A stretch of DNA of 64,000 bases from Eledone cirrhosa (lineage: Eukaryota): assembly GCA_964016885.1 (NCBI GenBank), contig OZ024754.1, positions 9,734,001 to 9,798,000 of the forward strand, given 5' to 3'. Below are positions 13,372 to 49,192 of this stretch, piece after piece; the stretch's first letter is position 1, and the number at the start of each line of letters is the position of its first letter. The position numbers and the translations under genes were made by a program. A model generated the notes under the pieces. The model saw only the letters and a program-made list of their open reading frames with translations. It made no database searches and was not told where the DNA came from.

Positions 13372-13432
13372 TATTTTATCTGACAAAAGCGTACTTAAAT
13401 GTTAGTACCCTTGAAATACGTATAATAAAATA
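13372..13432 (+). ncRNA. Type I hammerhead motif, family 1, probably inactive (core CTGACAA)
   Basis: TATTTTAT-CTGACAA-stem II (GTACT/AGTAC)-GAAA-TACGTA-TA^-ATAAAATA; G8 is mutated to A. Confidence 0.7.
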
Positions 13433-15359
13433 AATATGGTTTTGTACAGATATTTTCCATTTATTAATATTGTTAATATATATGTATATATATATACATA
13501 TATAGTTTTAGTGTGATTCAACCAGCCAGCCAATAAACATCTTTCTTTTATATTATATATAAATGACTGATAAATTTCAGAAAGCCAGTACAATGCAGTA
13601 GGAATACAGTGTGTTCGCCTTTTACATGAAGATGTGTTATTGAACGTAGCGCATAATGCAAATTTGCGTAATTCAAGTCTACTTTTCTGAAGAATAAAAA
13701 TATTAAAAACCACATGTTTTAGTGCATTATTCACACAAACTGAATATTTAATATTACTTCAAGAGGCATTAAAGCGAATTTCAAGTTCGTGTAAAAAGCA
13801 AACAGACTGTATATCAAGGGGAAAGAATGACAAAACTAAACAGTCATGTTTTAGCTAGTATATTTCTTAACGATGGTGACACATCTGAAATATCTGTAAC
13901 AGCTCTCTTCTCTAGTTAGTGCTGTCACACTAAAATATTTACATAGTAATATCTAGAAGACTTGACTTTCATTTATTTATATATTTATTTATCTTTATAT
14001 TTGTTTGTTTCTATTTATTTATTTTTTCTCTTCCAATCTGTATATCTTATACCAATCTGTACTCTCTTCTTTTGCTTTGAGACAAAAATAAAGCAACCAA
14101 ACTGTAGAAGGGTAATTGATAAGGCCAGTGTTTAAAGAAAACTTTACAAGATATCTGCTATCTAAAAACATACTTGATTAATTCAAATTTTATTCTTATT
14201 TTACAATTTCTTACTAAAGAAGAAGAAGTAAATTTGCATTTCATTCTTCAAAGTATTTTTCTATGTTGAGATCATAGAAGTTATTTTTATGTTAGAGTTT
14301 GTACTAGCTCAAATTGCTTTGGAAATTTTTTTCATAAGCTTAAACCTCAGCTTTGCAAGATATTTTCAAGCAAAAAGAAAAACAGAAATAAAAAAAAAAT
14401 AAAAATTCTTATTCTTTAATTTTATTTCATTTTTTGTTTGTTTGTGTGTGTTTGTTTTTGTTTATCTGTTTTTCGTTGGTTGTTTAGTTGTTGTTGTTGT
14501 CTTCTCAGTTTCAAATATTTGGTTTTTACTTAATATATTGCTATTCAGCTTGTAGTCTTATAATGTTTAAACTATTTAATATACTTCCATTCAACTTTTA
14601 GTCTTGTAATATAAATAACTAGATAGAGAGGAAAATTGCCTCGTGACTTTGAACACACATATACACACTCACTCACACATACACACATGCACGTACACTC
14701 ATTCACACATATACGCATGCACTCACACATATGCACACATGCACGCACACACACACACAAACAAACACACACATACACGAACACACTCACACAATCACAA
14801 TCACACTCGCACTCACACGAATACACACACATACACAAACACACACATGCACAAACACACACAAACACGCATACACAAACACAAACGCAAACACAATCAC
14901 ACTGACACACACAATCACACACACTCGCACACACACACACACACACCCACACACACACACTGACACACACACAAATGCACTCACACACACAGACACACTG
15001 ACACACACAACCACATACACACACACACACACTCACATATACACTTACACAAACGCCGTCACACACACAGACACACACAAACACACACCTTTACATGAAA
15101 GATCTCTAAATCCCACCCATTACACACCCCACTAAAACACTAAATTTAACTAATGAAATACAGTCATTCTATATTACTTGTTGTCGTTGTTGTTGTTGTT
15201 GTTTAGTTTCCAGCCATGACCATCCTGTCTACTTACTTTTCCAGATATGATATTATCAAATATGTTTAACATTTTCATCCTCATCATCACCATTATCTCA
15301 TCATCATCATCACCATTTAACATCTATCTTACTAAGCTTGCATGAGTTATATGGGTTGT

Positions 15360-17990
15360 CATGTTATCATGGCACCAACACTACCACATTACAGAGTGGA
15401 CTGGGTGCCTCTTTGTCATGGCACCAACACTACCACATTACAGAGTGGACTGGGTGCCTCTTTGTCATGGCACCAACACTACCACATTACAGAGTGGACT
15501 GGGTGCCTCTTTGTTATAGAACCAACACTATCATCTTACAGAGTGGACTGGGTGCCTCTTTGTTATAGCACCAACACTATCATCTTACAGAGTGGACTGG
15601 GTGCCTCTTTGTTATAGCACCAACACTATCATCTTACAGAGTGGACTGGGTGCCTCTTTGTCATGGCACCAACACTATCATCTTACAGAGTGGACTGGGT
15701 GCTCTTTGTCATGACACCAACACTACCACATTACAGAGTGGACTGGGTGCCTCTTTGTCATAGCTCCAACACTACCACATTACAGAGTGGACTGGGTGCT
15801 TCTTTGTCATGACACCAACACTACCACCTTACAGAGTGGACTGGGTGCCTCTTTGTCATAGCTCCAACACTACCACATTACAGGGTGGACTGGGTGCCTC
15901 TTTGTCATGGCACCAACACTATCATCTTACAGAGTGGACTGGGTGCCTCTTTGTCATAGCTCCAACACTACCACATTACAGGGTGGACTGGGTGCCTCTT
16001 TGTCATGGCACCAACACTATCATCTTACAGAGAGGACTGGGTGCTCTTTGTCATGGCACCAACACTACCACATTACAGAGTGAACTGGGTGCCTCTTTGT
16101 CATAGCACCAACACTATCACCTTACAGAGTGGACTGGGTGCTTCTTTGTCATGGCACCAACACTATCATCTTACAGAGTGGACTGGGTGCTCTTTGTCAT
16201 GGCACCAACACTATCATCTAACAGGGTGGAGTGGGTGCCTCTTTGTCATGGCACCAACACTACCACATTACAGAGTGGACTGGGTGCCTCTTTGTCATGG
16301 CACCAACACTATCATCTTACAGAGTGGAGTGGGTGCCTCTTTGTCATAGCTCCAACACTACCACATTACAGGGTGGACTGGGTGCCTCTTTGTCATGGCA
16401 CCAACACTATCATCTTACAGAGTGGACTGGGTGCCTCTTTGTCATGGCACCAACACTATCATCTTACAGAGTGGAGTGGGTGCCTCTTTGTCATAGCTCC
16501 AACACTACCACATTACAGGGTGGACTGGGTGCCTCTTTGTCATGGCACCAACACTATCATCTTACAGAGAGGACTGGGTGCTCTTTGTCATGGCACCAAC
16601 ACTACCACATTACAGAGTGGACTGGGTGCCTCTTTGTCATGGCACCAACACTATCATCTTACAGAGTGGACTGGGTGCCTCTTTGTCATGGCACCAACAC
16701 TACCACATTACAGAGTGGACTGGGTGCCTCTTTGTCATGGCACCAACACTATCATCTTACAGAGTGGACTGGGTGCCTCTTTGTCATGGCACCAACACTA
16801 TCATCTAACAGGGTGGAGTGGGTGCCTCTTTGTCATGGCACCAACACTATCATCTTACAGAGTGGAGTGGGTGCCTCTTTGTCATGGCACCAACACTACC
16901 ACATTACAGAGTGGACTGGGTGCCTCTTTGTTATAGCACCAACACTATCATCTTACAGAGTGGAGTGGGTGCCTCTTTGTCATGGCACCAACACTACCAC
17001 ATTACAGAGTGGACTGGGTGCTTCTTTGTCATGGCACCAACACTATCATCTTACAGAGTGGAGTGGGTGCCTCTTTGTCATGGCACCAACACTATCATCT
17101 AACAGGGTGGAGTGGGTGCCTCTTTGTCATGGCACCAACACTACCACATTACAGAGTGGACTGGGTGCTTCTTTGTCATGGCACCAACACTATCATCTTA
17201 CAGAGTGGAGTGGGTGCCTCTTTGTCATGGCACCAACACTACCACATTACAGAGTGGACTGGGTGCTTCTTTGTCATGGCACCAACACTACCACATTACA
17301 GAGTGGACTGGGTGCTTCTTTGTCATAGCTCCAACACTACCACATTACAGAGTGGACTGGGTGCCTCTTTGTCATAACTCCAACACTATCATCTTACAGA
17401 GTGGACTGGGTGCCTCTTTGTCATAGCACCAACACTATCATCTTACAGAGTGGACTGGGTGCCTCTTTGTCATAACTCCAACACTACCACATTACAGAGT
17501 GGACTGGGTGCCTCTTTGTCATGGCACCAACACTATCATCTTACAGAGTGGAGTGGGTGCCTCTTTGTCATAGCACCAACACTATCATCTTACAGAGTGG
17601 ACTGGGTGCCTCTTTGTCATAACTCCAACACTACCACATTACAGGGTGGACTGGGTGCCTCTTTGTCATAACTCCAACACTACCACATTACAGGGTGGAC
17701 TGGGTGCCTCTTTGTCATGGCACCAACACTATCATCTTACAGAGTGGACTGGGTGCTCTTTGTCACGACACCAACACTATCACATTACAGGGTCGACTGG
17801 GTGTTTTTTTGTCATGGCACCAACACTACCACATGACAGGGTGGACTGGGTGCTTTTTTGTCCTGGCACCAACGCTATCACATTACAGAGTGGAATGGGT
17901 GCTTTTTATCATCATACCAGCACTACTACCTTACAGGGTGAAATGGGTGCTTTTTACCGTAGTGCCAGCACTACAACCTTAAAGGATTGA
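15360..17990. repeat. 49-bp minisatellite, ~53 copies
   Basis: Unit CATGGCACCAACACTA(CCACA/TCATC)TTACAGAGTGGACTGGGTGCCTCTTTGT. Confidence 0.97.
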
Positions 17991-48500: not shown

Positions 48501-48976
48501 AAGTATTCTATCGGACATTCTAACAACTCTGCCAATTCACCACCTTTTTAATGTTTAGGAAAAGAGAAATTTAGGATGTAATCTATATTCTTTATCTAAA
48601 AGAGAATAGTATATTCTTCGAATCTGATGGAATTTCTTTGGAGTAAAATATAAATTACAATTCCATGTCATTTTATTTTATTTTAATTAATTTTATTTTT
48701 CCTTTTTTCTTTTCTTGTCTGAATATTTTGGAAAATAGAATAGCAAGAAAATAATTGAATTTTGAGCAGTTTTAGTGAATGGCTTCTCTGCAAAGATATG
48801 TTGAATTGAGTTTGTGTCACTTTTGAAAATGGTATGGACCCCTACTTAAACAACCCCACCCCCAGCCTTAATGAGCTTGAAGGTGGGTTTTCAGGGTAAC
48901 TCAAAACAAGGCACTCCTAAACAGAAAAGTTTCATTTTAGCTACTTTAACACCATCACCTGGGAATAATATATATA

Positions 48977-49192
48977 TATAAGGAAAAAAGATGAAATCGA
49001 AAATGCAACTGGACTCTTTTTTTTTTAAAATATATTTATTTGGTTCCTTTACCGGTTTCGCAGTTCTTGTGCTTTTCAAAAGTAGAATTGAGATGGAGGG
49101 TTTGTGGTTTTCCCCACAGAAGGAACCAAATAAATATATTTAAAAAAAAAAAGACTCCAGTTGCATTTTCAATTTCATCTTTTTTCCTTATA
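48977..49192. mobile_element. Foldback element with ~73-bp arms and a hammerhead in the spacer
   Basis: tataaggaaaaaagatgaaat...ggttcctt versus aaggaacc...atttcatcttttttccttata. Confidence 0.75.
49043..49087 (-). ncRNA. Minimal hammerhead motif, U3-A8 core variant
   Basis: Reverse strand: CTT-TTGAAAA-GCA caagaac TGC-GAAAC-CG-GTA^-AAG; stem III is the palindrome ACCGGT. Confidence 0.62.

Follow-up and report, generated by a model that had tools for sequence, protein, structure and literature searches.

The window analysed here (GC 33.5%) is the whole 64-kb stretch G000:C14:9734001-9798000 of the 3.0-Gb Eledone cirrhosa assembly, for which an earlier note had reported type I hammerhead ribozyme motifs embedded in (TA)n-rich DNA. 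At 13 of 13 coordinates we found the layout of a minimal type I hammerhead, that is stem I, core heptamer, stem II, GAAA, loop III, UH and stem I', with a loop III that is short and mostly palindromic across the set. Six motifs lie on the forward strand (13372, 18833, 19765, 23626, 38954 and 43277) and seven on the reverse strand (18653, 26140, 27069, 38328, 38691, 39873 and 49043). Since 18653 and 18833 form an inverted pair within one insertion, the 13 motifs represent 12 insertions. AATAAA was present at or just past the cleavage site in 9 of the 13 (background 4.4%), in line with the note's statement that it follows most of them. Likewise, (TA)4 occurred within 150 nt downstream of 12 motifs (background 19.6%), so that only 26140, with none on that side, departs from the statement that all lie beside (TA)n. 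A 14th motif, absent from the note, has a UUGAAAA...GCAA core at ~48041-48076 (label 48035) in a Neptune-type 3' end at 47942-48215 (+).

Coding parents of the motifs

Twelve of the 13 motifs were homologous to the 3' ends of elements encoding reverse transcriptase (RT) and GIY-YIG endonuclease (EN) in the same genome, nine directly and three via sister subfamilies. The genome-wide extension to linked RT and GIY-YIG open reading frames (ORFs) that the earlier note had proposed thus linked all but 23626 to parents. Judged by this homology, we assign the 12 as 5'-truncated 3' ends (pseudo-long terminal repeats, pLTRs) of Penelope-like elements (PLEs) with coding parents elsewhere in the genome. 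Ten, of which three were placed through sister subfamilies, appear to be of the Hydra clade, one is Neptune-type and one is of another EN+ type. The description as non-coding elements lacking a partner therefore stands only insofar as the window has no intact coding partner; its sole coding remnant of this kind, found by tblastn of the window, is a decayed Neptune-type GIY-YIG EN C-terminus of 66 codons with a stop at 2536-2745 (-). A genome search with GIY-YIG gave 10,595 first-look candidates.

The 18833 family led to a full-length parent. The Hydra A 3' end and tail at 18786-19032 (+) hold the hammerhead at 18833-18903 and end in (TA)n, and the inverted 5' partner at 18608-18787 (-) holds the hammerhead at 18653-18723; they matched the full-length copy L439 at 96.4% and 95.6% identity, respectively. 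L439 consists of pLTR and tail, an 808-codon ORF, a 3' untranslated region (UTR) and a second pLTR and tail, followed by (TA)n. Its hammerheads are 3,712 bp apart, its frame is stop-free with SDKT, YRDD and a CxCX5C linker, and the sequence of the Hydra A tail forms the beginning of the unit that follows. These features are shared with published Hydra PLEs, for which passages of Craig et al. 2021 (PMC8557442) give the clade definition and motifs, (TA)n, the tail and an inverted 5'-truncated copy. As in that clade, a single ORF carries RT and then a C-terminal GIY-YIG (in L061 GIY-YIG reached only E 0.009, below the cut-off), and DKT replaces DKG, as SDKT or ADKT in L439, L441, L421 and L425, a position beyond the reach of the truncated parents of 19765, 38328, 38691 and 43277. 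Furthermore, the linker is CxCX5C, CCHH and the Cys pair inside GIY-YIG are absent, the hammerhead lies in the pLTR near the 3' end, and insertion is into (TA)n with a tail and an inverted 5' copy. The atlas neighbours of the Hydra-type parents included one from Cnidaria. Six Hydra parent ORFs that were compared were 27-57% identical pairwise (blastp), which contradicts the earlier view that the families are unrelated.

The other directly linked Hydra motifs followed the same pattern. The Hydra B 3' end at 19752-19955 (+), with an 83-nt helix II in its hammerhead (19765-19878), has, in 3/25 loci, shared upstream sequence that contains a Hydra-type CxCX5C EN, and an inverted truncated partner without a CUGA core lies at 19614-19754 (-). 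For the Hydra C 3' end at 38160-38636 (-; hammerhead 38328-38380) a broken RT and EN lie upstream in one locus, L267, and for the Hydra E 3' end at 38660-38735 (-; hammerhead 38691-38735, weak helix II) a Hydra-type RT/EN was found upstream in 1 of 25 loci, plus L278 (L248/L277 and L278). The Hydra D 3' end at 38821-39035 (+; hammerhead 38954-39000) has RT/EN together with the hammerhead in 13 of 20 loci. Upstream of the Hydra G 3' end at 43073-43366 (+; hammerhead 43277-43336), a CxCX5C Hydra EN is collinear in 3 of 25 loci (L448, L453 and L455), and L455 contains both EN and hammerhead.

Three further motifs were linked through relatives. One sister subfamily, which in 16 of 20 loci follows a Hydra EN on its 3' side, is 78-91% identical to the Hydra F-like 3' end at 26989-27191 (-; hammerhead 27069-27134) and 72-79% identical to the Hydra-type 3' end at 13372-13432 (+), whose hammerhead has a private G8A (CUGACAA). 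The third, at 39779-39978 (-; hammerhead 39873-39939), belongs to a sister subfamily of Hydra A and matches the end of L439 at 78% identity. An apparent link of 27069 to an EN in L220/L278 was rejected, because the EN concerned is that of the 38691 family. A degraded fragment of the 27069/Hydra F family also lies inside a (TA)n tract at 24382-24735 (-), and PLE families were seen nested within one another's TA-rich 3' UTRs in L330, L343/L455, L326 and L333.

Two elements lie outside the Hydra group. The Neptune-type 3' end at 48977-49118 (-) carries the hammerhead 49043-49090, which has a U3-A8 core and is weakened in the window copy, and its inverted truncated partner and tail occupy 49120-49275 (+). 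A perfect 8-bp 'stem I' around 49043-49128 was discarded as a product of this inverted duplication. The 49043 motif lies downstream of one RT and GIY-YIG ORF family in 8/8 loci. Its member L041 (938 codons) is Neptune-type in its DKG motif, its CX2-5CxxC linker and the Cys pair that lies within GIY-YIG; in Pfam its ORF matched RVT_1 (E 2e-6, slightly short of the curated cut-off) and then GIY-YIG (over the cut-off). The linker, DKG and a CCHH-type EN were found for both 49043 and 48035, and the L041/L047 ORFs share with published Neptune PLEs GLKF and DKG (L041), the microsatellite association and the pLTR hammerhead. The element at 26039-26196 (-; hammerhead 26140-26181, U3-A8 core) has a C-terminal CCHH-type EN in the shared upstream stretch of 3/25 loci, and a decayed inverted partner lies at 26216-26423 (+). 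Its Cys-rich linker fits neither CX2-5CxxC nor CxCX5C, and Penelope/Poseidon and Nematis were considered as its affinity.

Insertion anatomy and the 23626 family

Insertion anatomy was surveyed across nine families with 220 copies in total, the copy from the window being part of its family's set. Of the 220, 198 had (TA)4 no more than 250 nt downstream (background 27%), and in most families the distance to (TA)n took two discrete, family-specific values (e.g. 37/126, 52/216, 44/190 and 29/95). An inverted partner was present within 1.5 kb in 89/220 copies, and a direct partner in 4/220. Two end points beside (TA)n together with an inverted truncated partner are the published PLE signature. Taken with the parents, these ends favour, at a probability of roughly 0.92, a reading in which the motifs are minimal type I hammerheads at the 3' ends of 5'-truncated, mostly Hydra PLE copies in (TA)n, likely inserted by the EN and RT of their parents. 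The single copies in the window are likely passive relics. The earlier placing of the motifs as PLE-related, microsatellite-associated and repeated genome-wide is thereby borne out.

The 23626 family is organised differently. In the window, the 3' end of a ~2-kb non-coding, hammerhead-flanked unit lies at 23484-23732 (+), with a private U4A in its hammerhead (23626-23682), and an inverted truncated partner with tail at 23241-23486 (-). Two direct hammerhead repeats enclose a body in 9 of 14 loci at a spacing of 1,696-2,494 bp; some loci are lengthened by inserted repeats, and bodies are 80-90% identical between loci. In these bodies the longest stop-free stretch was 82-136 codons, and the best PLE match by tblastn reached only E 0.21. 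Because the family shares its tail and inversion signature with the others, it is likely a non-autonomous PLE derivative, and this ~2-kb unit with a hammerhead at each end, likely mobilised in trans, is new here. A sister subfamily of 23626 has many copies in the genome.

This organisation bears on whether the motifs could instead be stand-alone non-autonomous retrozymes, short tandem hammerhead repeats that spread via circular RNA, as the earlier note had suggested. Most copies are indeed short and non-coding, the 23626 family has a hammerhead in each direct repeat and no long ORF, and another family forms a classic retrozyme-like array of five identical tandem hammerheads at ~490-bp spacing (L051:7561-9565, G000:C3:308729000-308738900). 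However, direct partners are as rare as the survey found, and the ragged 5' ends of the other families run into RT/EN ORFs; because these ORFs are collinear, the retrozyme reading is refuted for 12 motifs and fits at most one of the 13. Even 23626 departs from published passages on non-LTR retrozymes, whose monomers measure 170-400 nt with a family consensus of up to 972 bp (PMC7229834; bioRxiv 10.64898/2026.07.22.740005). It shares with them the non-coding, type I hammerhead-bearing direct repeats and PLE-like ends, whereas its unit spans 1.7-2.5 kb, its hammerhead is minimal rather than canonical, and no locus has more than two direct hammerheads or a long array. We therefore consider retrozymes an improbable source of the set as a whole, and return to truncated PLE copies as its explanation.

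Core variants, chance controls and scale

Genome-wide searches with nine of the motifs each yielded 40 scored candidates and 42-67 matches, and the best copies were mostly 90-100% identical. The CUGANGA core given for all motifs in the earlier note is present in 8/13 window copies; 26140 and 49043 read UUGANAA, 38954 reads CCGAAGA, and 13372 and 23626 read CUGACAA and CAGAUGA. The last two deviations are private to the window, since relatives of 13372 have CUGAYGA in 12/12 and those of 23626 have CUGAUGA in 60/68. Among distinct extracted sequences, CUGANGA was found in 12/12 (13372), 44/46 (18833), 61/68 (23626), 62/71 (27069), 30/31 (38328), 36/40 (38691) and 40/45 (43277), UUGANAA in 27/30 (26140) and 31/35 (49043), and CCGAAGA, a U4C core, in 46/53 (38954), while the 19765 family is mixed (18 U4 and 9 C4 among 29). 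The copy sets were picked by likeness to the window copy and count some overlapping loci twice, a bias that weighs against our reading if the counts are taken as a census; they therefore describe the state of each family and not how frequent a core is in the genome.

When positions 3, 4 and 8 were allowed to vary, 467 loci showed covariation of the core: 266 C3-G8 and 51 U3-A8, against 5 C3-A8 and 5 U3-G8. Alongside C3-G8, position 4 was U in 266, C in 50, A in 1 and G in 0. Clusters of motifs with at least three matches numbered 23 of 48, and the UUGAAAA...GCAA family of 47942-48215 gave 22 matches, combining U3-A8 with C at position 13. Family-wide U3-A8, U4C and GCAA cores are new here. Loop III alone formed no stable hairpin in 11/11 computed cases, and its self-duplex ranged from -0.2 to -10.5 kcal/mol.

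The comparison with shuffled sequence proposed in the earlier note separated the motifs from chance only when the descriptor was stringent. A strict descriptor gave 5 window matches, compared with 1 across 12 local dinucleotide shuffles. A literature-based descriptor, tuned with the window already seen, required a palindromic loop III and allowed the cores CUGANGA, UUGANAA and CCGANGA (published U3-A8, plus U4C); with C3-A9, G12-A14, A15.1-U16.1, H17 and helices I and II examined, it passed 8/13 motifs and none in 15 shuffles. The five failures were 13372 (private G8A), 23626 (private U4A), and 26140, 38691 and 49043, whose helix I or II is weak in the window copy. A descriptor under which the base of helix II had to contain four pairs in succession retained 3/13, and a loose one (one core mismatch, no palindrome) remained at chance level (7 versus 0-6 and 11 versus 3-8 in shuffles). 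The proposed Rfam scan returned no hammerhead family among the best 150 of 267 window matches, nor in two local scans, which is uninformative because minimal motifs lack helix III. A reading of the motifs as chance matches in DNA rich in AT and repeats, or as inactive look-alikes with no history of selection as ribozymes, would suit the loose descriptors, the Rfam scans and the five failing copies. Chance, however, is refuted by the shuffles, the C3-G8/U3-A8 covariation and a motif at the same 3'-end position in every parent speak against the reading, and we give it almost no weight. Three weak hammerhead-like candidates at chance level were also seen (266-312, +; 11665-11712, +; 39109-39152, -), the latter two overlapping repeats present in other loci.

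The palindromic descriptor was then applied to 20 arbitrarily placed 10-kb tiles, where it gave 11 matches and none in 5 shuffles, that is 55 intact motifs per Mb (95% range 27-98), a density new here. Extrapolated, the genome would likely hold ~1.6e5 intact motifs (0.8-2.9e5). The window is unexceptional (8/64 kb versus 11/200 kb, p=0.07). The Hydra A EN alone gave 61,255 first-look candidates, which are not copy numbers; its top 150 matches were at least 90% identical, and the Hydra clade, described from few families, is thus abundant and young here. A bolder proposal, which we regard as possible though rather doubtful, is that of ~1e5 active-type hammerheads in a large Hydra/Neptune radiation, with lineages working with U4C or U3-A8 plus GCAA cores, and a 2-kb SINE-like PLE parasite that spreads via hammerhead-processed circular RNA and is several times larger than described animal retrozymes.

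Proposed mechanism, published relatives and minor features

Following published PLE work, the parental GIY-YIG EN would nick AT-rich DNA or (TA)n. Target-primed reverse transcription may then begin shortly past the hammerhead, at one or the other of two positions, so that ends have or lack a tail, and would usually abort early, making the hammerhead the part copied most often. The ribozyme would cut tandem read-through transcripts to unit length, either by dimerising via the palindromic loop III or aided by PLE protein. In passages of PMC11167929, two RT start sites generate the tail in vitro and the hammerhead is protein-assisted.

Several points weigh against the origin of the motifs in truncated PLE copies. 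Upstream of the 23626 family no PLE ORF was found in 25, 20 and 20 loci. The parent link of 38328 is one locus, and those of 13372, 27069 and 39873 run only via sister subfamilies 72-91% identical. The clade calls are provisional, made from motifs, blastp and a by-eye match to Hydra-1_Obim, and the Hydra A unit of 3,712 bp exceeds the published 'generally <3 kb', which is a tendency and not a definition. As to function, the published record includes weak cleavage by minimal hammerheads (PMC4209133), cleavage of 1/9 Xenopus retrozyme dimers (bioRxiv 10.64898/2026.07.22.740005) and PLE insertion in vitro for which hammerhead cleavage is dispensable (PMC11167929), each in the passages concerned.

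In kind, the system was already listed: the Craig et al. 2021 supplement includes Hydra-1_Obim, an Octopus bimaculoides element that prefers (TA)n and carries a hammerhead. The motif listed there equals no window hammerhead, 43277 being nearest by eye. In contrast to that single octopus entry, we found seven families and sister subfamilies with longer 3' UTRs (~0.2-2 kb), a family A unit of 3.7 kb, and family-wide U4C cores absent from the listed Hydra motifs. U4C itself is known from a viroid, according to a passage of PMC3088659. Unlike published Neptune PLEs, those here have U3-A8 cores, in one family also with GCAA for GAAA, a combination not found in the published passages. Minimal hammerheads in pLTRs, the U3-A8 variant, dimers, solitary truncated copies and inverted pairs are described in passages of PMC4209133; ours share the short helix I, the long variable helix II, the palindromic helix III region, the U3-A8 covariant, copies that are mostly truncated and solitary, and inverted pairs separated by 100-700 bp. 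The numbers differ, ~0.8-2.9e5 estimated here versus 2,000-9,000 in Schistosoma, coelacanth and Xenopus, with different descriptors. A literature search for hammerhead and octopus gave no paper devoted to cephalopod hammerheads, and the available text of two cephalopod repeat papers (PMC13282606 and PMC8967140) has Penelope-like elements but not the term 'ribozyme'. What remains new is the scale, the core variants that run through whole families and the non-coding unit of 2 kb; otherwise these are new members of known PLE clades. The near-intact full-length copy could serve biochemical work on how (TA)n is targeted and what the hammerhead does, and natural core variants fixed family-wide offer a test of hammerhead tolerance. 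If true, a non-autonomous unit of such length would take the link between retrozymes and PLEs outside the vertebrates, a step named as untested in a passage of bioRxiv 10.64898/2026.07.22.740005.

Other repeats surround the insertions. A short palindromic repeat in (TA)n, resembling a miniature inverted-repeat transposable element, lies at 19030-19250 and 23941-24160 and recurs beside L439; it gave only chance miRNA-model matches in the Rfam scan. A coding fragment resembling a long interspersed element at 40100-40870 (+), two frames of which had no match in Pfam, is one that we take to be RTE-like. Large minisatellite arrays occupy 2968-8057 (period 22), 15367-17950 (49), 35645-36933 (14) and 54894-56660 (47), and an element resembling a short interspersed element (SINE) is repeated with tRNA-like heads at 13116-13173, 38083-38146 and 42829-42886 (-).

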